From an uncultured Acidimicrobiia bacterium (GTDB lineage Bacteria; Actinomycetota; Acidimicrobiia; Spongiisociales; UBA4744), in NCBI GenBank assembly GCA_964594235.1, contig CAZQMF010000005.1:1-56801 (forward strand): a DNA stretch of 56,801 bases, in the 5' to 3' direction. Position 1 is the first letter of the stretch. Each line of letters opens with the position of its first letter. The notes beneath the pieces were generated by a model. The model was not told where the DNA came from. It saw only the letters and a list, made by a program, of their open reading frames with translations, and searched no databases. The position numbers were made by a program, and so were the translations under genes. This document shows positions 12,361 to 24,647 of this stretch, piece after piece.

Positions 12361-12380
12361 TAAGGGACTTTCGGCCCTAT
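12361..12380 (+). promoter_or_regulatory. DosR/DevR-type box upstream of the hexaheme lipoprotein
   Basis: TAAGGGACTTTCGGCCCTAT versus mycobacterial consensus TTSGGGACTWWAGTCCCSAA. Candidate -10 TACAGT at 12412-12417. Confidence 0.7.
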
Positions 12381-12443: not shown

Positions 12444-13445
12444 ATGAGACGCTCGTTGTTGCTCTTGGCCGTGCTCGCGCTGGTCGTCGCGGCATGCACA
12501 GGCCCGGCAGGCCCGGTTGGACCCGAGGGTCCCCAGGGTGTCGCCGGTCCTGCGGGACCGCAGGGACCGGCAGGAGAGAACGCCACCTTCACCGCGACCG
12601 ACCTCACGTGCACGGAGTGCCACAACGACGGGTCGACGCTCACCGGCAAGGCCCTCGAGTGGTCGACGTCGGGACATGGAATGGGAACCACGTACCTACG
12701 CGCGACCACTGCCTCGTGCGCGGGATGCCACTCGGGCAACGGCTTCACCGACCGCATCACCGCAGGGATCTCGAATCCCGATGAGGTCGCTGATGGCCAG
12801 CACGACCCGACGAGGGAAGACTGCCGCGCCTGCCACCAGATCCACACCACGTACACCAGCGACGACTTCGCGTTGACGACGACGGACCCGGTGGTCCTGT
12901 ACGCGAGCGGCGAAACGTTCGATCTCGGAATGGGCAACCTGTGCGCCAACTGCCACCAGCCGAGGAGAACCCTCCCCGAGGCCGCTGCGGATGGCACGAT
13001 CGAGATCGACAGCACGCACTGGGGCCCGCACCATGGTCCGCAGTCGGCGGTCATGTTGGGCATCGGCGGTTCGACGGACGGTAGCCCCGCGGCCCACTAC
13101 CAGCTGATTGCAGATGGCTGTCCTGCATGCCATATGGGTGAGAACGCCAACCACTCGTTCGCTCCCGACACGGCCAACTGCCAGGGGTGCCACGAGGGCC
13201 TGGACACGTTCGACTACAACGGTGTCCAAACCGAGATCAAGGATCTCTTCGACCAGCTCGGCCAGGCCCTCCAGGCCAAAGGGCTGCTCGATGCGGACCT
13301 GACGCTGGTTCCAGGAAGCTATCCAGCAGCACAAGCAGGAGCCGCGTGGGACTACGAGATGATCAGCGACGACGGAAGCTGGGGTGTGCACAACCCGGGC
13401 TATGTCAAGGCACTGCTCACCGCAGACATCGCAGCCCTGCAGTAG
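12444..13445 (+). CDS. Hexaheme c-type cytochrome lipoprotein with collagen-like stalk
   Basis: MRRSLLLLAVLALVVAA-C lipobox, then (G-X-Y)9. Six CxxCH: CTECH, CAGCH, CRACH, CANCH, CPACH, CQGCH. C-terminal GSWGVHNPGY; 333 aa. Confidence 0.92.
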   Translation: MRRSLLLLAVLALVVAACTGPAGPVGPEGPQGVAGPAGPQGPAGENATFTATDLTCTECHNDGSTLTGKALEWSTSGHGMGTTYLRATTASCAGCHSGNGFTDRITAGISNPDEVADGQHDPTREDCRACHQIHTTYTSDDFALTTTDPVVLYASGETFDLGMGNLCANCHQPRRTLPEAAADGTIEIDSTHWGPHHGPQSAVMLGIGGSTDGSPAAHYQLIADGCPACHMGENANHSFAPDTANCQGCHEGLDTFDYNGVQTEIKDLFDQLGQALQAKGLLDADLTLVPGSYPAAQAGAAWDYEMISDDGSWGVHNPGYVKALLTADIAALQ

Positions 13446-14089: not shown

Positions 14090-14183
14090 TCTCAGCCATC
14101 AGCCATCAATGACGAAGCTGCTCACCGCGAGCCGCGGTTCATGATTCGGGCGGATGACTGATGACTCAGGACTGAAGACTCAG
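14090..14183. repeat. Heptamer-armed repeat E3
   Basis: Left TCTC AGCCATC AGCCATC; right GATGACT GATGACT CAGGACT GAAGACT CAG, which overlaps the cytochrome stop codon. Confidence 0.75.
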
Positions 14184-15772
14184 TACCCCTGCTCGGGTGT
14201 GTGGCACGAGGTGCATTTCTCTATCTTCCATGCGCCCCCGATCGGAACGGGATGCTTGAAATCGAGACCGTTGATGCTGGAGTCGAGATCGGCGAGGTTC
14301 GCAGATTGTCCTTGCGCGGTGATGATGTGGCACACGTCACACTCCGACGAGACCGTTGTCCCGTCATACGTCTGGAGATCCGAGTTGTGGCATCTGAAGC
14401 AGCCGTCGTTGGTGAAGTGGCTGAGGTTGTTCTCACGAGTCCTGTAGTCGGTCTTCATCTCGGGGAAGAAGTTCTGGTTGTAGATCACCACTAGCGTCGC
14501 GGCCGCCTGGTCGACCTTCGCCTGATCCACGGTGCCCGCATACTTCTCTGAATAGAACGCCTCGAGACCCGTCCTGATGGCTTCGTCGGCCTGGTCCCTG
14601 GTCGTGTAGGGAGCGTTCAGGAGGTTGAGCCCCTCCCATCGCACGAACGGCAGGTCGGTCGAGATGGTGCCCTTGGTCATCTCGAGGTTGATAGCGGTGG
14701 CCGGCGGCTCGTAGTCGTGACTTGGCCTGTTGTGGCAGTCGATGCAGTCGAGCGTCCTCACTTCGATGCCTGCGGCGTTCAAGTCGACCTGCTGACCGTT
14801 CTTCCAGTACTCGGTCACCTTGTCGGTCGTCTTGTCGGTCAGCCGAACCCAGACCATGTCCTGTCGTTTCGGATCGTCGGTCGCGTACTCGATCGTGGTG
14901 CTGCCGAGCATATGCCAGTGGATGCCTCCCACCTGGCCGGTTCTCGGGTCACCGCCACCGATCTTGACAGCGAGACTGATCGTCCACGGAGTGTTGTTCT
15001 CGTCCGTGCGGAAGTACGTCTTCGTGACGAGCTTGTCGCCGTAGAACTGCTGGGGCCAGTGACATCCTTCGCACGTCTCCTGCGCGGGACGGAGGCTGGT
15101 CACCGGAGTGACGATAGGCCGATCGTAGGTATTGGTGATCGTCTTCCACACCTGCCGCAAACCGTCGATCTTCGACCTCACGAAGAACGATGCGCCCGGT
15201 CCGATGTGGCACTGGGCGCAGGCAACCTTGGCGTGCGGCGAATGCTGGTATGTGACCCACTCCGGTTCCATTACGGTGTGGCACGACTCGCCACAGAACG
15301 ACGACGAGTCGGTCACCTCGTACCCCTTGAACCCGCCCCATGCGACCGTACCAACGAGTACAGCGGAAAGGACGCCGAATATCGCGAGGGACCGCATGTA
15401 CCTGGGGCTGGACGGCTCAACGCGAAGATTGAACCGGATGCGCTCGCCGCGCTTGCGGGCTCTCACGACCTGGATCCGGATCGCGATCGCAAACAGAATC
15501 GCGCCCAACAGGACGATTACAGGGAACCCGATGAAGGTAACGAGTCCCCTATACGGGTTGGAGACGGGTGAACTGAGGTCGACGAACGCCAGGACCGCGA
15601 ATCCCAACAGCCCTGCGAGTACCAACGCCCCACCGACGGCAGCGAGCGGATGTCGGTACAGGCTCCGTACCTCGGTCTTCACCTCTTCGGTGTCGGTGCC
15701 GTTGCCGCCGGTGTTCTCGTCGCTACCGGTGTTCTCGGTGTTCTCGGCCGAATCCTCGATCTCGTCGCTCAC
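14180..15772 (-). CDS. imcH: ImcH-like membrane multiheme cytochrome c (NapC/NirT N-terminal domain, 7 heme motifs)
   Basis: Three N-terminal TM helices. CGESCH, SPHAKVACAQCHIGPGA, LRPAQETCEGCHWP, GIHWH, DCIDCHNRP, NFFP, GCFRCH, CDVCH, CTSCH. GTG start with GAGGAGG RBS. Confidence 0.88.
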   Translation of the reverse strand: MSDEIEDSAENTENTGSDENTGGNGTDTEEVKTEVRSLYRHPLAAVGGALVLAGLLGFAVLAFVDLSSPVSNPYRGLVTFIGFPVIVLLGAILFAIAIRIQVVRARKRGERIRFNLRVEPSSPRYMRSLAIFGVLSAVLVGTVAWGGFKGYEVTDSSSFCGESCHTVMEPEWVTYQHSPHAKVACAQCHIGPGASFFVRSKIDGLRQVWKTITNTYDRPIVTPVTSLRPAQETCEGCHWPQQFYGDKLVTKTYFRTDENNTPWTISLAVKIGGGDPRTGQVGGIHWHMLGSTTIEYATDDPKRQDMVWVRLTDKTTDKVTEYWKNGQQVDLNAAGIEVRTLDCIDCHNRPSHDYEPPATAINLEMTKGTISTDLPFVRWEGLNLLNAPYTTRDQADEAIRTGLEAFYSEKYAGTVDQAKVDQAAATLVVIYNQNFFPEMKTDYRTRENNLSHFTNDGCFRCHNSDLQTYDGTTVSSECDVCHIITAQGQSANLADLDSSINGLDFKHPVPIGGAWKIEKCTSCHTPEQGY

Positions 15773-15792
15773 GGTCCCTCCTCGAGGCACCG

Positions 15793-15859
15793 ACGGTAGC
15801 CGGTGCCCAGTCCCCTCCCGTAGGGCTGATAGACCCTTCTACGGGACTCCTGTCCCCTT
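15793..15859 (-). promoter_or_regulatory. imcH-like promoter: two adjacent DosR-type 20-mers plus -10 TACCGT
   Basis: 15840-15859 TACGGGACTCCTGTCCCCTT (perfect GGGAC-N4-GTCCC) and 15820-15839 GTAGGGCTGATAGACCCTTC. The -10 at 15798-15793 would centre the boxes near -63.5 and -43.5. Confidence 0.7.
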
Positions 15860-15916
15860 TTCCTCCACCCCTCAGCCATAACCGGATGGCCGAAGATGTC
15901 GTCCCAACCATAATCG

Positions 15917-17221
15917 TCACAGGCCCCGCACGAGTTCCTCGATGGACGGCCCCTCCACCACCTCGATGCCGTACGTCACACGGGTTCCAGGCATCTCGAG
16001 ATCGAGCAACGGCAGCAGGTTGACGGGTGTGGCGACGATCACCACATCCGGCTTGGATCGTCTGATCGTTTCTGCGAGTTCGTCCCGCTGGACCTGCCCA
16101 TAGCCCATGGCGGGAAGCAGCGCCCCGATGTGCGGGTACTTCTCGAACGTTGCAGCGATCGACCCGACGGCGAACGGTCTCGGGTCGATCAGTTCGGCCG
16201 CTCCTCCGGTCTGGGCCGCGATGACTCCCGCACCGTACGCCATGCTTCCGTGGGTGAGGGTCGGACCGTCCTCGATGACGAGCACCCGCTTCCCCACGAT
16301 GAACTGGGGATCGGCGACGGTGATCGGTGACGTCGTCTTCACGAGGATGGCACCGGGGTTTGCGAGCCGCACATTCCGAACCACCTGGTCGACGTCATCC
16401 GGTTTGGCCGTCCCGACCTTGTTCACGACGACCACGTCGGCCCGTCGAAGGTTGGCTTCACCCGGCCAGTACCGCAGTTCGTGTCCGGGACGGTGGGGAT
16501 CGACGACGCAGATGTGCAGATCCGGTCGATAGAACGGCAGGTCGTTGTTGCCTCCATCCCACAGGATGACGTCGGCCTCTTGCTCGGCGACCTTCAGGAT
16601 GGCCCCGTAGTCGACACCGGCGAAGATCACCCCACCCTGTTCGATGTAGGGCTCGTACTCCTCGCGCTCTTCGATCGTGCAGTCCGCATCGATGAAATCC
16701 TGGTACGTCGCGAACCGCTGGACGGCCTGCGCGGCGAGGTCTCCGTAGGGCATCGGATGCCTGACTGCCGCGACCCGCTTCCCGTCGCCGGCGAGGGCGT
16801 GCCATACGGCTCGACTGAGTGGCGACTTGCCGGAACCCGTCCGAACGGCTGTGACTGCAACGACAGGGAGACGCGAGTCGATCATCGTCTCTGAGCCGAG
16901 CAACTCGAACGATGCGCCGGCCGCCACCGTCCGAGCGGCCATGTGCATCACATGCTCATGGGTGACATCCGAGTACGAAAAGACCGCGGTGTCGACCGCA
17001 TATGCCGCAATCAATCGCTCCAACTCCACTTCGGACACGATCGGGATGCCGTCGGTGTACAGAGGTCCGGCGAGCGCGGCGGGGTATCTCCGATCGTCGA
17101 TGTTGGGGATCTGTGTGGCAGTGAACGCGACCACCTCTACGTCGGGATCATCGCGATACATCACATTGAAGTTGTGGAAGTCCCGCCCTGCGGCGCCCAA
17201 GATCAGTATCCGCTTGCCCAT
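15917..17221 (-). CDS. Cyclic 2,3-diphosphoglycerate synthetase-like P-loop NTPase (COG2403-like)
   Basis: ILGAAGRDFHNFN, AVRTGSGKS, VRHPMPYG, CTIEEREEYE, WDGGNND, EDGPTLTHG. Confidence 0.8.
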   Translation of the reverse strand: MGKRILILGAAGRDFHNFNVMYRDDPDVEVVAFTATQIPNIDDRRYPAALAGPLYTDGIPIVSEVELERLIAAYAVDTAVFSYSDVTHEHVMHMAARTVAAGASFELLGSETMIDSRLPVVAVTAVRTGSGKSPLSRAVWHALAGDGKRVAAVRHPMPYGDLAAQAVQRFATYQDFIDADCTIEEREEYEPYIEQGGVIFAGVDYGAILKVAEQEADVILWDGGNNDLPFYRPDLHICVVDPHRPGHELRYWPGEANLRRADVVVVNKVGTAKPDDVDQVVRNVRLANPGAILVKTTSPITVADPQFIVGKRVLVIEDGPTLTHGSMAYGAGVIAAQTGGAAELIDPRPFAVGSIAATFEKYPHIGALLPAMGYGQVQRDELAETIRRSKPDVVIVATPVNLLPLLDLEMPGTRVTYGIEVVEGPSIEELVRGL

Positions 17222-17251
17222 ACCTATCCTCCTCGGTTCCATTCTCGTCCG

Positions 17252-19658: not shown

Positions 19659-20786
19659 TCAGCCGGTCAGGACATCGAGGATCGCTGCGAGTTTCGCCTC
19701 GGTCTCGGCCACCTCGGCTGCCGGGATGGAATCCCGGACGATCCCGGCCCCCGCGTAGACCTGCGCGATCGAGCTACGAAACAGAGTCCCTCGGAGAGCG
19801 ATGATGGCCTCTCCGTCGCCGTTCTCATCCATCCAGCCCAGCGCTCCCGCGTACCACCCCCGGTCGAATGGCTCGTTCTCTTTGATGAAGAGGAGTGCAG
19901 CATCGGTTGGCGTGCCCGCAACGGCAGGGGTCGGGTGCAACGCCTGCGCGAGGTCGATGAGGCTGACGCCCGGGAGCGCCGTTCCAACGATCTCCGTCCC
20001 GAGGTGTTGAATGTTGGGCAGGCGAACCACCGATGGCGTGTCGGGGACGGCCAGCTCGGTCGTGACGGCCCTCAAGATGCGAGCGACCTCGTCGACGACG
20101 ATTCGATGTTCCTCGCCTTCCTTCGAAGCAGCGAGCAGTGCGATCGCGATCCGTTCGTCGTCATCATGCCCTGTCCCACGAGGGGCGCTCCCAGCGAGTG
20201 GGAACGACCGGACGGACGCGCCATGTCTCTCGATGAGCAGTTCCGGGCTGGCACCGAGAAACGCGGTCCCCTGCTCGATCCACCCGTAGAGGAACGTGTT
20301 CGGAAACCGTTCACCCATCGGGGCAAGAAGATCGAAGGGATGCCCGCGCTCCACGGCGACGTCGACCCGCCGAGCGAGCACGACCTTCGACAGCACGCCG
20401 GAGTCGATCTCGTCTATAGCTCGTCTGACGAGCCCGGCCCACTCATCCGCCGTGGGCACTTCGGCAACCACCCGACCTCTCGGCACATCGGGCGGCCCCG
20501 GCACACGAAGTGACTCGAGGAGACCCTCCGCACCGGGCGCGGTATGGACCCGAACCCCCTCGTCGTCCTTGACGACGGTTACCGCCGGAACCACGACGCT
20601 GCCGGCCGACTTCGGCTCGAAAGGAAGCACGAACATGCACCGTGGACCCTCGGGACGCGGCGTTCTCAGATCGGCGGAGCGCCACGCGACACCGATCCCG
20701 GCGAACTCCTCCCTGCCCCGGAAGTAGACAACCGGGTGCCCGGCCGCGGCCCCGGCCCTGGCTACGTCGAAGGGTTCCGGTTCCAC
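19659..20786 (-). CDS. menF: Isochorismate synthase
   Basis: KVVLARR, GASPELL, LAGSAPRG, KEGEEHRIVV, LHPTPAVAG, RGWYAG, AGAGIVRDS. Start uncertain. Confidence 0.88.
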   Translation of the reverse strand: MEPEPFDVARAGAAAGHPVVYFRGREEFAGIGVAWRSADLRTPRPEGPRCMFVLPFEPKSAGSVVVPAVTVVKDDEGVRVHTAPGAEGLLESLRVPGPPDVPRGRVVAEVPTADEWAGLVRRAIDEIDSGVLSKVVLARRVDVAVERGHPFDLLAPMGERFPNTFLYGWIEQGTAFLGASPELLIERHGASVRSFPLAGSAPRGTGHDDDERIAIALLAASKEGEEHRIVVDEVARILRAVTTELAVPDTPSVVRLPNIQHLGTEIVGTALPGVSLIDLAQALHPTPAVAGTPTDAALLFIKENEPFDRGWYAGALGWMDENGDGEAIIALRGTLFRSSIAQVYAGAGIVRDSIPAAEVAETEAKLAAILDVLTG

Positions 20787-20796
20787 GGCGGGCAGT

Positions 20797-21576
20797 CTAC
20801 GAGTCGAAGTACCCGACGATCTCATCGGCCACCAAACCGGGCCGTTCCATCGGAAGGAAGTGCGACGCGCCGGCAACGATCTCGTAGCGGGCGTTGGGCA
20901 TTCGTCTGGTCAGAGCGGCGGTCGACGCGTCGCTGAGCGTCGTGGAGTTCTCCCCGGCGAGTACAAGTACAGGACACCCAACTTCGTCGAGTCGGTCGTA
21001 CAGGCCGTGCGCTGTCGCGGCTCGGTACACCTCGGCCTCCACTTCCGGCCTGCACTTGAGCCACCAGCGGCCGTCTCGCTCGACGAATCCTCCGTCGACG
21101 TAGGCGGCGAGGACATCGGGACTCCAGGACGCAAAGGGGTCTTTGCCCCGGTAGTTGTCGATGATGGCCTCGCGGCTATGGAATCCGTCCCGCCGCCGCA
21201 GCGCGCCTTCGGCAAGAGGAATGTGCTCCATTCTCCTGTACGGCGGGGGGAAGATGATCGGTTCGATAACGACGAGCGCCTTGAACCGGCCGGGTCGTAG
21301 CACCTCCGCCATGAGCAGTGTTGCTCCTCCCATCGAGTGGCCCACCCCGATTGGGTGACCATCGAACGGTTCGAGGACGTCCAGCGCGTGGCGAGCGAAG
21401 GACCACCAGTCCGCCGGGGGAACGAACCCGTTGGCATCGCCGTGACCGGGGGCGTCCCAGGCGGTGAACGGTCGCCCGGCGAGCTGTTCTCCGACCGGCC
21501 CCCACACCTCCTTGCAGAATCCGGTCGCGTGGGCGAACGCGACGAACTCGGAGTTCACTCTCGTCTCAACCGTCAT
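20797..21576 (-). CDS. Alpha/beta hydrolase
   Basis: HATGF, DAPGHG, nucleophile elbow GHSMGG, C-terminal HFLPME. Confidence 0.88.
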   Translation of the reverse strand: MTVETRVNSEFVAFAHATGFCKEVWGPVGEQLAGRPFTAWDAPGHGDANGFVPPADWWSFARHALDVLEPFDGHPIGVGHSMGGATLLMAEVLRPGRFKALVVIEPIIFPPPYRRMEHIPLAEGALRRRDGFHSREAIIDNYRGKDPFASWSPDVLAAYVDGGFVERDGRWWLKCRPEVEAEVYRAATAHGLYDRLDEVGCPVLVLAGENSTTLSDASTAALTRRMPNARYEIVAGASHFLPMERPGLVADEIVGYFDS

Positions 21577-22201
21577 CCACGTCGAAGGCGACGTGAGACT
21601 CCAGCCTGACCACGCCGTCGATGCGACGAATCAGCGCCTCCAGGAGCCGCGCGTCGGTCGCGGTCGGCGCGGTACCGGAGATCGTCACCACCCCGTTCGC
21701 GACATCGACATCGAGCGAGTTCGCTTCCAAGAGGAGCACTCGTTTGACGATGTCTTCGCGGATCTCGTCTTCGATCACGTCGTCGGGTCGCGTGAATACG
21801 GCCACCACGTCGGCCCTGCTGATGATTCCGACCAGCGCTCCGCTCGAGTCGACCACAGGAAGCCTCTTCACGTGGTGGTGTGCCATCACACGGGCGGCTT
21901 CCGTGACAGTCGCTTCGGGAAAGATGACGACCGGTTCGCGCGTCATCACCTCACCAACCGTTTCGGCATCGACGATCGGACCGCGCTCTTCGATCATTGC
22001 ACTGAGGAGTCGCCGCTGAGGTCGATCCGCTTCCCTCTCGAGGAAGTCCGCCTCGGTGATGATTCCGACCAGCGTGCCCGATTCGTCGACGACTGGGAGT
22101 CCGCTGACACCGGCTCCGACCATCACGCGGGCAGCCTCCTTGAGGTAGGTCGATGGCGTGGTCGTGATCACATCGATGGTCATGATGTCGAGGACCCTCA
22201 C
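21566..22201 (-). CDS. CBS-domain pair plus C-terminal BON domain protein
   Basis: VSGLPVVD..GIITEAD and VKRLPVVD..GIISRAD, then DVDVANGVVTISG. GTG overlaps the USP stop (GTGA). Confidence 0.9.
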   Translation of the reverse strand: MRVLDIMTIDVITTTPSTYLKEAARVMVGAGVSGLPVVDESGTLVGIITEADFLEREADRPQRRLLSAMIEERGPIVDAETVGEVMTREPVVIFPEATVTEAARVMAHHHVKRLPVVDSSGALVGIISRADVVAVFTRPDDVIEDEIREDIVKRVLLLEANSLDVDVANGVVTISGTAPTATDARLLEALIRRIDGVVRLESHVAFDVDDG

Positions 22202-22629
22202 GTGCACGGTCCCTTCACCACGAGCACATCGCACGAGGAAAGGTGCACGACCCTGTGGCTCGTGCTACCCAACACGAGCGCTGCGAGTTCGCCCCGTCCT
22301 CTCGATCCGACGACGATGAGCTCAGCCTCGACCTTCTTGGCGTACTCGACGAGCGCATCCGCCGGATATCCGTCCAGGTCGACCTTGTGGATGTCCACCG
22401 AGGTATCGACAATCAGTGGATCGACGACACTCCATACGAGTTCCCGCTGCGACTGCACCAATGTTGAGAGATCGGCCGGCACCTGACTCAGCGCTCCGAG
22501 CAGGCTGCTCGGGATGTGCGATACGTGCACGACATGGAGATCGGTCCCTCGAGACTCGGCAAACTCCACCGCTCGTCGAACCGCGAGAAGCGAGTGCTCC
22601 GATCCGTCCGTCCCAACGACGATACTCAT
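22198..22629 (-). CDS. Universal stress protein (UspA family)
   Basis: IVVGTDGSEHS, LIVVGSRGRG, LGSTSHRVVH; start MSIVVG overlaps the response-regulator stop. Confidence 0.93.
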   Translation of the reverse strand: MSIVVGTDGSEHSLLAVRRAVEFAESRGTDLHVVHVSHIPSSLLGALSQVPADLSTLVQSQRELVWSVVDPLIVDTSVDIHKVDLDGYPADALVEYAKKVEAELIVVGSRGRGELAALVLGSTSHRVVHLSSCDVLVVKGPCT

Positions 22630-23294
22630 GACTCCTCCCACTGTTCCGGCGGATACTCCCGCTCGCGTTTGGCCGCGAGTCGTGCCGAGTAGGCCGCAGC
22701 TTCCGTCCTGCGTGTCATTCCGAGCTTGTTCAGAAGGTTCGACACATAGTTCTTGACCGTCTTCTCGGCGAGGAACAGCTCTTCTGCGATCTCCTTGTTC
22801 GTGAGGCCCTCTGAGATCAAGTCGAGGATCTTGCGCTCCTGGGGCGACAGCCTCGCCACGAGCGGATCGGTTGGTTCGTCGCCACGGATCCGACGGAAGA
22901 CATGTTCGGTCATCGTCGGGTCGAGGAGCGACTCGCCGGCGCCGACTCGGCGGATGCTGTCGATCAGCTGGCGAGCATCGACGCGCTTGAGGACGTAGCC
23001 CGACGCACCGGCCATGATCGACGCGAACAGAGCCTCTTCGTCGGCGAATGACGTCAGCATCAGCACGCGCACGTCCGGCCAGCGTGAACGGATCTCTCTG
23101 CACGCCTCGATGCCGGTCCCGTCTGGCAAACGCACATCCATGACGACCACTTCCGGCCGGTCGTACCCCACACGGCGAATGGCCGATTCGACGGTGCCCG
23201 CCTCGCCGACGACCTCGAGGCCGTCCTCTCCGCCGAGCAGCGTCACCAGACCCTTTCTCACGATCTCGTGGTCATCGACGATCAGAATCCGCAC
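22626..23294 (-). CDS. dosR: DosR/DevR-like NarL-family response regulator
   Basis: VDDHEIVRKGL, DVRLPDG, LTSF, GASGYVLK, GESLLDP. HTH EGLTNKEIA..FLAEKTVKNYVS carries the same recognition helix as M. tuberculosis DevR. Confidence 0.85.
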   Translation of the reverse strand: MRILIVDDHEIVRKGLVTLLGGEDGLEVVGEAGTVESAIRRVGYDRPEVVVMDVRLPDGTGIEACREIRSRWPDVRVLMLTSFADEEALFASIMAGASGYVLKRVDARQLIDSIRRVGAGESLLDPTMTEHVFRRIRGDEPTDPLVARLSPQERKILDLISEGLTNKEIAEELFLAEKTVKNYVSNLLNKLGMTRRTEAAAYSARLAAKREREYPPEQWEES

Positions 23295-23330
23295 ATGTCC
23301 TCCTTACCTTTTCAGGCTACCGGGTCGGGC

Positions 23331-23491
23331 GGTCTTGGGTTCTCGGTCTTGGGTTCTCGGTAAGAGGGATCCCTTCGCTCGCCCTTCTGAGTTCATGGTT
23401 CTCGGTCTTCGATGAGACCGTCGCTGTCCCGTGGACTCGTGGTCTCCGGGATCGCGCTCCTACCCACAACCGACAACCGAGAACCCAAGAC
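23331..23491. repeat. Heptamer-armed repeat E4, followed by GC hairpin 23493-23511
   Basis: (GGTCTTG GGTTCTC)x2 GGT ... ACCCACA ACCGACA ACCGAGA ACCCAAG AC; the arms share a 16-nt perfect complement. Confidence 0.85.
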
Positions 23492-23531
23492 GGGGCGGGC
23501 TCCGCCCGCCCTGGCACTAGCCTGATCGACA

Positions 23532-24647
23532 ATGACGCGGCCCATGATCCCCGCCTCGCGGCTCTCCGACCTGATCGGTGCGGCAGCACGTGTCACCGGT
23601 CAGACCGAACTCACCGCAGTCCTGGAGACGGTGGTGGCAACTGCCATGGACCTGACGGGAGCACCGTACGGCGCCCTCGGCGTCGTCAGCGAGAACGGCC
23701 AGCTCATCCAGTTCGTCCATCAGGGCATGCCCGAGAAGATCGCTGAGCTGATCGGTGCACCTCCGAAGGGTCGGGGTCTGCTCGGTGCGGTTACATGGCA
23801 GCCAAACCCGATCCGGCTCGAGAATGCCCAATCCCACCCTCGTGCCAGCGGCTTTCCCAAGCATCATCCGCAGCTCGACGGCTTTCTCGGTGTCTCGATC
23901 CGCATCGGCGGCGACGTATTCGGAAACCTGTATCTCGGAGCGTCGCAAGGAGGCTTCACAGAACAGGATGAGACGCTGATCCAGGCCCTCGCGCTCATCG
24001 CAGGGTCGGCGATCTCGACTCTCAGGCTGCAGGCGCGGCTTCGGAGGGCCGCCGTCCTGGAGGACCGTCAGCGCATCGCTCGGGACCTCCACGACTCCAT
24101 CATCCAGGACCTCTTCGCCGTCGGTCTGTCCCTCCAGGCTCTCACATCCCGCCTCTCCGACCCCGAGATGCGCACGAGCCTGGAGGAGGCCGCACTGCAT
24201 CTCGACGACTCGATCACCGCGCTGCGACGGTTCATCTTCGATCTTCGTCCGGCCACCCTGGGCACGCGCAATCTCAAGGACGAGCTGTCGGAGCTGCTCG
24301 GACGCCTGGCCGTTCCCTACGAAGCAAGCATCGGCATCGGCGTGACCGGTCCAGTCGACGACCTCGTTCCGGAACTGGTCGACAACGTTCTCCAGATCAC
24401 GAGGGAAGCGGTGAGCAACGCGTTGCGCCACTCGGGAGCGGACGTGGTGAGTATCTCCGTCAGTCGAGGCATCGATCGGCTCGTATTGACGGTCGTCGAC
24501 AAGGGCAAGGGCTTCGACATCGAATCGATCGCCCGCGGCATGGGTCTCGACAACATCCGGAGCCGCGCCGAGACGGCAGGGGGCGAGGCCGACGTGGAGA
24601 GCAAGGTTGGTGAGGGGACCACCGTTCGGGTGGTGCTTCCTCTCTAG
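23532..24647 (+). CDS. DosS/DosT-like sensor kinase: single heme-type GAF + HisKA_3 + HATPase
   Basis: YGALGV, GFPKHHP, FGNLYL (DosS GAF-A motifs); IARDLHDSIIQ H-box; EAVSNALRH, VVDKGKGF, GMGLDNI. Confidence 0.88.
   Translation: MTRPMIPASRLSDLIGAAARVTGQTELTAVLETVVATAMDLTGAPYGALGVVSENGQLIQFVHQGMPEKIAELIGAPPKGRGLLGAVTWQPNPIRLENAQSHPRASGFPKHHPQLDGFLGVSIRIGGDVFGNLYLGASQGGFTEQDETLIQALALIAGSAISTLRLQARLRRAAVLEDRQRIARDLHDSIIQDLFAVGLSLQALTSRLSDPEMRTSLEEAALHLDDSITALRRFIFDLRPATLGTRNLKDELSELLGRLAVPYEASIGIGVTGPVDDLVPELVDNVLQITREAVSNALRHSGADVVSISVSRGIDRLVLTVVDKGKGFDIESIARGMGLDNIRSRAETAGGEADVESKVGEGTTVRVVLPL

Follow-up and report, generated by a model that had tools for sequence, protein, structure and literature searches.

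DevR (DosR) is the dormancy switch of Mycobacterium tuberculosis, and OsdR is a regulator of stress responses and development in Streptomyces. In the DosR transcription activation complex, K179, K182 and N183 read GGGACT. At the published DevR promoters, the edge of the proximal box lies 33-34 nt from the transcription start, the box centres fall at -42.5/-43.5 and -63.5, and the boxes are arranged in tandem and in helical phase (PMC3177182, PMC13486717). The proximal box of these promoters overlaps a weak -35 element, and from -43.5 DevR acts as an activator. None of the M. tuberculosis DevR promoters has fewer than two boxes, and the secondary sites are poorly conserved yet required for cooperative activation. 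Within the footprinted boxes, G3, G4, G5 and C7 are the most conserved positions and are essential, and a substitution at position 9 abolished the binding of DevR to an M. tuberculosis box (PMC3177182). The OsdR sites tolerate G or C at the central positions; among those published, CGGGACCTTCGGCCCT has been validated by EMSA, and AGGGACCTTCGGCCCC and AGGGCCGAAAGTCCCG are also listed (PMC5069765). ImcH, in turn, has been defined by six CX2CH motifs and a single CX3CH motif that adjoins three transmembrane helices; in a 2018 survey, homologues turned up in just one actinobacterium (PMC6295460). In the literature that we searched, we found no paper combining DosR, extracellular electron transfer and multihaem cytochromes, and no description of DevR-type control of any imcH.

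The window analysed here is a stretch of 56,801 nt (contig C5) from an uncultured Acidimicrobiia bacterium, whose genome (G000) comprises 1.94 Mb in 155 contigs with 63.8% G+C; in the labels used below, G denotes a genome, g a genus and f a family within the Acidimicrobiia order studied. The site of interest lies in a 126-nt gap with minus-strand genes on both sides, namely an upstream neighbour at 15917-17242, which codes for an unannotated protein of 441 aa, and the gene for an ImcH-like heptahaem inner-membrane cytochrome of 530 aa at 14180..15772. The latter starts with GTG at 15772 and is preceded by a Shine-Dalgarno sequence, GAGGAGGG, at 15776-15783. Its product has a NapC/NirT-type domain, hydrophobic segments at residues 41-72, 74-106 and 125-149, a CGESCH motif at residue 160 and six CxxCH motifs, and is 39% identical to a Geomonas homologue. 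The name imcH-like, which an earlier note on this DNA had given to the gene, is appropriate, since the three hydrophobic segments, the single CX3CH and the six CX2CH agree with the published definition of ImcH (PMC6295460). As in Geobacter ImcH, there are three transmembrane helices, one CX3CH plus six CX2CH and a NapC/NirT-like segment. The host here, however, is presumably a monoderm actinobacterium, and the partner is a lipoprotein cytochrome with a collagen-like stalk (see below). The menaquinone genes menB, menA, menD, menE-like and menH-like surround both cytochrome genes.

In the gap, the earlier note had described two abutting 20-mers, GTAGGGCTGATAGACCCTTC at 15820-15839 and TACGGGACTCCTGTCCCCTT, a perfect GGGAC-N4-GTCCC, at 15840-15859 (both as read on the plus strand), and all the sequences that it quoted were found where it had placed them. 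In the sense of the cytochrome gene (minus strand), they contain two 18-mers: a proximal DevR/OsdR-type box, AAGGGTCTATCAGCCCTA (15821..15838), and a distal box, AGGGGACAGGAGTCCCGT (15841..15858), which has the perfect GGGAC-N4-GTCCC core and lies 20 bp from the proximal one. The predicted -10 hexamer, TACCGT (15793..15798 on the minus strand, ACGGTA on the plus strand), would set the start of transcription at about 15786, and, provided that this start applies, the note's centres of about -43.5 and -63.5 are arithmetically correct for the two 18-mers. A GTCCC half-site that it had added to the boxes does exist at 15810..15814 (plus strand), but it is probably non-functional, since even within the genus it is changed or absent in relatives, reading GGAAC (sense) in G004 and G003 and being gone in G002. 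Further upstream, at 15860-15916, G000 differs from G004 and G003 by a 27-nt insertion, cgattatggttgggacgacatcttcgg, right after the stop of the upstream gene, which duplicates a GGTTATGG motif.

Scores against known sites do not set the two boxes apart. The exact core GGGACN4GTCCC has three copies in the 1.94-Mb genome where about seven are expected from base composition, and so is not over-represented. Against the 20-mer M. tuberculosis consensus, each box shows at least six mismatches, a level that dozens of intragenic sites share. With a position weight matrix (PWM) built from 25 published Streptomyces OsdR sites (PMC5069765), rather than from M. tuberculosis Dev boxes, the proximal box scores 8.3 and the distal box -0.3, and 245 positions of the genome score at least 8. 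The PWM check that had been proposed for these boxes thus went against them, as neither the OsdR matrix nor the consensus mismatch scan lifts them above the genome background, and the case must rest on comparative evidence. A match of a seven-site PWM within the coding sequence of a prolyl-tRNA synthetase (C3:71657, in RPYGY codons) was set aside as a chance hit of an over-fitted matrix. The genome-wide gene calls come from a crude codon-usage caller, and the genic or intergenic labels of the sites that matter were therefore checked by hand.

Comparative evidence does support the proximal box. Of 61 related genomes, 28 contain an orthologue of the ImcH-like gene, and alignments together with a regular expression recovered an 18-nt box, a spacer of 21-22 nt and a TAnnnT hexamer exactly once in 24 of 29 ImcH-like upstream regions. 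This layout spans at least eight lineages of the order, with about 0.04 chance matches expected per region. With a spacer of 22 nt, the box and the -10 are, respectively, AAGGGTCTATCAGCCCTA and TACCGT in G000 (genus g1), TAGGGTCTATCTGCCCTA and TAAGGT in G002 (likewise g1), TAGGGACCATCAGCCCTG and TAGCGT in g3, TTGGGACTCTGGACCCTA and TACGTT in f8, GGGGGCATCTCGGCCCTA and TACGGT in f11, TCGGGACCATGGGCCCTA and TAATCT in f6, and AAGGGTCGAAGGTCCCTG and TAAGGT in f9; eight genomes of g4 have TAGGGACTAACGTCCCTA and TAGGCT separated by 21-22 nt, and f12 has TCGGGCCGGTGTGCTCTA and TACCGT separated by 21 nt. Across the 24 regions, the hexamer occurs as TACCGT, TACGGT, TAAGGT, TAGCGT, TAGGCT, TACGTT, TAATCT or TATCCT, with only the T, the A and the last T fixed across lineages. 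The corresponding region of G044 (locus L025) is a masked run of N, and so unscorable. In genus g4, identity reaches 0.98 in the box and 1.0 in the -10, as against 0.54-0.66 in other intergenic DNA and 73-80% in the flanking coding sequences. The upstream gene differs between genera, and the promoter therefore belongs to the cytochrome gene itself.

Within the box, the contact bases GGGnC-N4-GnCCC are retained and change is confined to the other positions, in the centre and the flanks, as seen in the cores GGGAC-TAAC-GTCCC (g4), GGGTC-GAAG-GTCCC (f9), GGGAC-CATG-GGCCC (f6) and GGGTC-TATC-AGCCC (g1). The retention of GGG, C7 and the mirror-image G and CCC, with the rest variable, is the pattern predicted for a dimeric helix-turn-helix site. 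The g4 box, GGGACTAACGTCCC, is a single base off the M. tuberculosis core GGGACTWWAGTCCC. In G000, the proximal box has GGG at positions 3-5 in both halves, C7 in the left half and a T in its place in the right half, and A and T at the central positions 9/10; each of the orthologous boxes has at least one full GGGnC half, and all except that of f12 have GGG/CCC in both halves. On these grounds, we consider the stretch 15821-15838 to be a real DevR/OsdR-type operator, apparently class-II-like in its placement, and the proximal box is probably functional as such. The earlier assignment of the boxes to the DevR/OsdR type is supported by this order-wide footprint, by the motif family in the genome and by near-identity to OsdR sites (both taken up below), and the choice of TACCGT as the -10 is supported by the T, A and final T kept across lineages.

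The predicted arrangement closely follows that of the M. tuberculosis DevR promoters (tgs1-Rv3131, hspX, Rv3134c), in which an imperfect palindrome of 18-20 bp with GGGAC half-sites overlaps the -35 at -42.5/-43.5 and an adjacent box at -63.5 faces the same side of the helix. The tandem layout may be called DevR-like, as had been proposed, for both the predicted box centres and the helical phase agree with the published promoters. There are also differences: the boxes are spaced by 20 bp here and by 21 bp in M. tuberculosis, C7 is replaced by T in the right half of the anchor box, which reads GGGCT, the centre of the distal box is C/G, and most lineages of the order show a single recognisable box.

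The distribution of the distal box is narrow. G000 has the palindrome intact, G004 has it with one spacer change and G003 with an altered core (GGAAC), and it is absent from all other genera and from G002, which has only a GGG-N8-CCC remnant; in the alignments, the ImcH-like upstream regions of other lineages have no second recognisable box. Two adjacent boxes in helical phase, with 20 bp between their centres, are accordingly found in G000 and G004, and in a degraded form in G003. Within the genus, the distal box is no more conserved than the neighbouring intergenic DNA and, being restricted to the closest genomes, it is young and without visible constraint. The primary and secondary roles in the earlier note thus have to be exchanged, with the imperfect proximal box as the order-wide anchor and the perfect palindrome as a feature of the closest genomes only. 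One reading of this distribution is that just the proximal box works, as in an OsdR-style single-site promoter, and that the distal palindrome is recent, neutral or not yet functional. The absence from G002 and all other genera, the core already changed in G003, and the negative OsdR PWM score would all fit it, as would the central C/G, which is unfavourable according to M. tuberculosis mutagenesis, and the single occurrence of the other family boxes in G000. It has to contend, however, with the position of the palindrome: the odds of finding a perfect 10-base core, of which there are three in 1.94 Mb, at 20 bp from the conserved box and on the same helical face are about 5e-4. Moreover, every contact base is present in both distal half-sites, with G3, G4, G5 and C7 complete and only the centre C/G (G and G on the sense strand) instead of A/T, and poor conservation is a known trait of secondary DevR sites. 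We hold the single-site reading to be rather unlikely, and give the distal box an even chance of being a working cooperative site, judging by its sequence and position.

The proximal box belongs to a wider family of sites. A scan with the M. tuberculosis consensus revealed TAAGGGACTTTCGGCCCTAT at 12361, and a second family box, AAGGGACTTTCGGCCCTA (12362..12379, plus strand), lies 64 nt upstream of a gene for a hexahaem lipoprotein (12444-13445, plus strand), the true start of which is the ATG at 12444. This sister box (the hit at 12363) has the best OsdR PWM score of the whole genome, 16.3, and is conserved upstream of the lipoprotein orthologue in G009, and also in G004, G003, G001 and G002. 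The TTCCAACAG that follows it is conserved in G009 too. The lipoprotein contains six CxxCH motifs, has MtrC-like and collagen-like Pfam matches, and displays a collagen-like (Gly-X-Y)n stalk after the lipobox cysteine. A genome search with WAGGGWCTWTCRGCCCTA returned four sites at no more than one mismatch, against about 0.03 expected: the two cytochrome promoters, C3:2159, and C90:4787, which, at a contig end, precedes a Tat-signal protein. An arsR-permease-thioredoxin-like operon, a divergent hlyIII/permease pair and an HTH_17/PocR-like regulator gene have weaker sites in front of them. In the 20 genomes of the family, the 17-mer of the family motif has about 40 occurrences at 0-1 mismatch, in non-homologous contexts.

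The motif of the genome, AGGGWCTTTCGGCCCT with the core AGGGACTTTCGGCCCT, is identical at 14-15 of 16 positions to the published OsdR sites of Streptomyces coelicolor, that is, AGGGACCTTCGGCCCC, CGGGACCTTCGGCCCT and AGGGCCGAAAGTCCCG. The OsdR consensus, AGGGCCGATCGGCCCT, shares the GGCCC half-site found here (PMC5069765), and the OsdR/OsdK system of S. coelicolor also resembles the present one in that its boxes are mostly single and clustered around the regulator gene, and in that its regulon includes anaerobic respiration genes (narG2 in that case). It differs in that the box centre is AT-richer here (TTTC or TATC), and in that the regulon here would comprise c-cytochromes of the extracellular-electron-transfer type and a candidate small RNA, in place of nitrate reductase and developmental genes. 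The GGCCC half-site gives the sequence a Streptomyces flavour, and the predicted architecture in G000 is Mycobacterium-like, with its tandem boxes at -43.5 and -63.5.

The candidate small RNA is an element at C3:2158-2290 (locus L067, 1498-1665). There, a gene for a hybrid sensor kinase stops on one side of an exact TAGGGTCTTTCGGCCCTA box, and a phosphoribosyltransferase gene has its 3' end on the other. The box is followed after 22 nt by TATGTA and then by an element of about 70 nt with the segments CACCCCGAT, GGCAGCGGCGCGGAGACCGG, GGCG, AATCCGATGCTAG, GTC and GTCGGGGTGCT in this order. The element is near-identical in g1 and g4 and forms a long hairpin (RNAalifold, -45.8 kcal/mol), and an Rfam search with it returned no match. 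The orientation of the box is flipped between g1 and g4. We propose the element as a candidate for a small RNA driven by a DosR box.

As to the factor that would read these boxes, the window codes for a NarL-type response regulator at 22626..23294 (minus strand), which matches M. tuberculosis DevR (3c3w) over its full length with an E-value of 1.2e-67 and is the proposed activator. The phospho-acceptor D54 and the helix EKTVKNY, with K179, K182 and N183, are identical in the two proteins, and the FLAEKTVKNYVS helix that had been ascribed to the local regulator is accordingly present and the same as in M. tuberculosis DevR. The divergent gene at 23532..24647 (plus strand) specifies a sensor kinase of 371 aa with GAF, HisKA_3 and HATPase domains (Pfam), which is the proposed oxygen or redox sensor. 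Its GAF domain matches the haem-binding GAF-A structures of DosT (2vzw, E 5e-37) and DevS and keeps the HHP motif, so that both the reading helix and a putative haem GAF domain in the kinase are shared with the M. tuberculosis system. No second GAF domain (GAF-B) is found in the 371 aa, and the kinase thus has one GAF domain where that of M. tuberculosis has two. On the strand of dosR, the gene is followed by those for a USP protein (22198-22629) and a CBS-BON protein (21566-22234). The whole run at 19659-23294 reads dosR, USP, CBS-BON, alpha/beta-hydrolase and isochorismate synthase (menF), on the same strand and with minimal gaps.

Across the order, the identity of the DevR orthologue ranges from 64% to 99%, and in g1, g3 and g5 its gene lies 7-10 kb from the ImcH-like gene. 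Two of the four best boxes of G000 are within 11 kb of dosR, and in G038 a box is found 66 nt upstream of dosR itself. In a scan of 41 genomes of other families, GGGWCNWTCGGCCCT gave 48 hits and the reversed control 11. Of the 48, 43 fall in the 30 genomes with a DevR orthologue and five in the 11 without one (binomial P=0.005, with kinship ignored), and the nine genomes of those lineages in which the orthologue is clearly missing have two hits against three controls. In the other families of the order, the motif hence appears mainly to track the DevR orthologue.

Alternatively, the boxes could be read by another factor, for which there are two candidates. One is the HTH_17 regulator, which is of the excisionase type and PocR-like in its C-terminal part (C34:16855-17707 in G000; about 1414-2270 of locus L144 in G013). 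In both of these genomes, a Dev-type box immediately precedes its gene, as would be expected under autoregulation, and the dosR promoter of G000 has none: unlike in M. tuberculosis, no DevR-type box was found in the dosR-kinase intergenic region (23295-23531). The other candidate lies on contig C10 and shares the helix motif TVKNH; apart from the DevR orthologue, it is the only NarL-type regulator with a LuxR helix-turn-helix detectable in the genome. However, the HTH_17 regulator is absent from G026, G056, G008 and G050, which carry the motif and the ImcH-like box and all of which have the DevR orthologue. It is better read as a member of the regulon that is often near dosR. The C10 regulator, for its part, has N in place of K179, and the genome motif nearly equals validated OsdR/DevR sites. 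A different reader is therefore improbable, and we retain the DevR orthologue in this role. The upstream box of the HTH_17 gene is followed by repeated TGCAG/ATGCA motifs, and this gene lies 6-7 kb from dosR in f1, f6 and f4. The dosR-kinase intergenic region contains, at 23330-23495, three copies of GGTCTTGGGTTCTCGG, two of them direct (about 23336-23367) and one inverted (about 23476-23491); these may serve as the operator through which a further factor controls the two-component system.

With the conserved TAnnnT as the -10, the edge of the proximal box is about 34-36 nt from the predicted start. The -35 region is very poor, being ACGGGA or TACGGG as compared with TTGACA, and a strict sigma-70 scan of the region detected no promoter, both of which fit an activator-dependent promoter. 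As the proximal box overlaps the expected position of the -35, the DevR orthologue could in principle bind there and repress by blocking it. This is very improbable, given that a very poor -35 and an empty strict promoter scan are typical of activator-dependent promoters and that published DevR activates from -43.5. Nor can the palindromes seriously be taken for an RNA hairpin, a terminator or chance G+C-rich symmetry: in a scan, GGGACTCCTGTCCC with CTTTTCCTCC after it came up as terminator-like on the plus strand, and the exact core is not enriched genome-wide, but both flanking genes are on the minus strand, where the hairpin has five pairs and no U tract, and the order-wide footprint at a fixed spacing to the -10 is beyond chance. 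That terminator-like hit, the sole one in the scan, was rejected as being on the wrong strand for both flanking genes. We therefore favor an activator-dependent promoter, in which a DevR/OsdR-type operator at -43.5 would act on a weak -35 with, in this lineage, a second box at -63.5, as the likely reading of the sequence.

How such a promoter might operate can be sketched by analogy with the described systems; we infer binding, activation over repression, the start site, the signal and the distal cooperativity alike. The haem-GAF kinase (23532-24647) would sense the loss of oxygen, or else NO, CO or the redox state, and would phosphorylate the DevR orthologue (22626-23294). A dimer of the regulator would then bind the proximal box, with the helix bearing K179, K182 and N183 reading GGGnC, and a second dimer would probably bind the adjacent distal box cooperatively on the same face of the DNA. 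RNA polymerase would be recruited to the TACCGT -10, with transcription from about 15786, and the hexahaem lipoprotein gene would be induced along with the cytochrome gene by the regulator acting at the 12362 box. Falling oxygen would thereby switch on a route of electron export from quinol to cytochrome.

What is new here is the content of the regulon, namely cytochromes of the ImcH type and MtrC-like ones, both of the extracellular-electron-transfer type; the mechanism itself is already known. Where the M. tuberculosis regulator controls dormancy genes, the target here is a multihaem quinol-oxidising cytochrome, and the promoter organization suggests that this ImcH-like protein is induced when oxygen runs out. 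The operator logic is kept in front of the ImcH-type cytochrome in at least eight lineages of environmental Acidimicrobiia. It is an evenly balanced proposition that, across the order, DosR/DevR has as one core and ancient target a module of the ImcH-like quinol oxidase, the hexahaem lipoprotein with the collagen stalk and the conserved small RNA. If our reading is right, a defined operator (box, 22 nt and -10) would be available that is suited to reporters in M. smegmatis or S. coelicolor, and the motif could be used for reading regulons in metagenome-assembled genomes. It would also connect the sensing of oxygen, in concrete and testable terms, with anaerobic or extracellular respiration based on cytochromes in uncultured bacteria of the Gram-positive type. 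If true, the wiring of this dormancy regulator would be one that is not seen in Mycobacterium or Streptomyces, and hypoxia would directly switch monoderm actinobacteria to cytochrome-based electron export.
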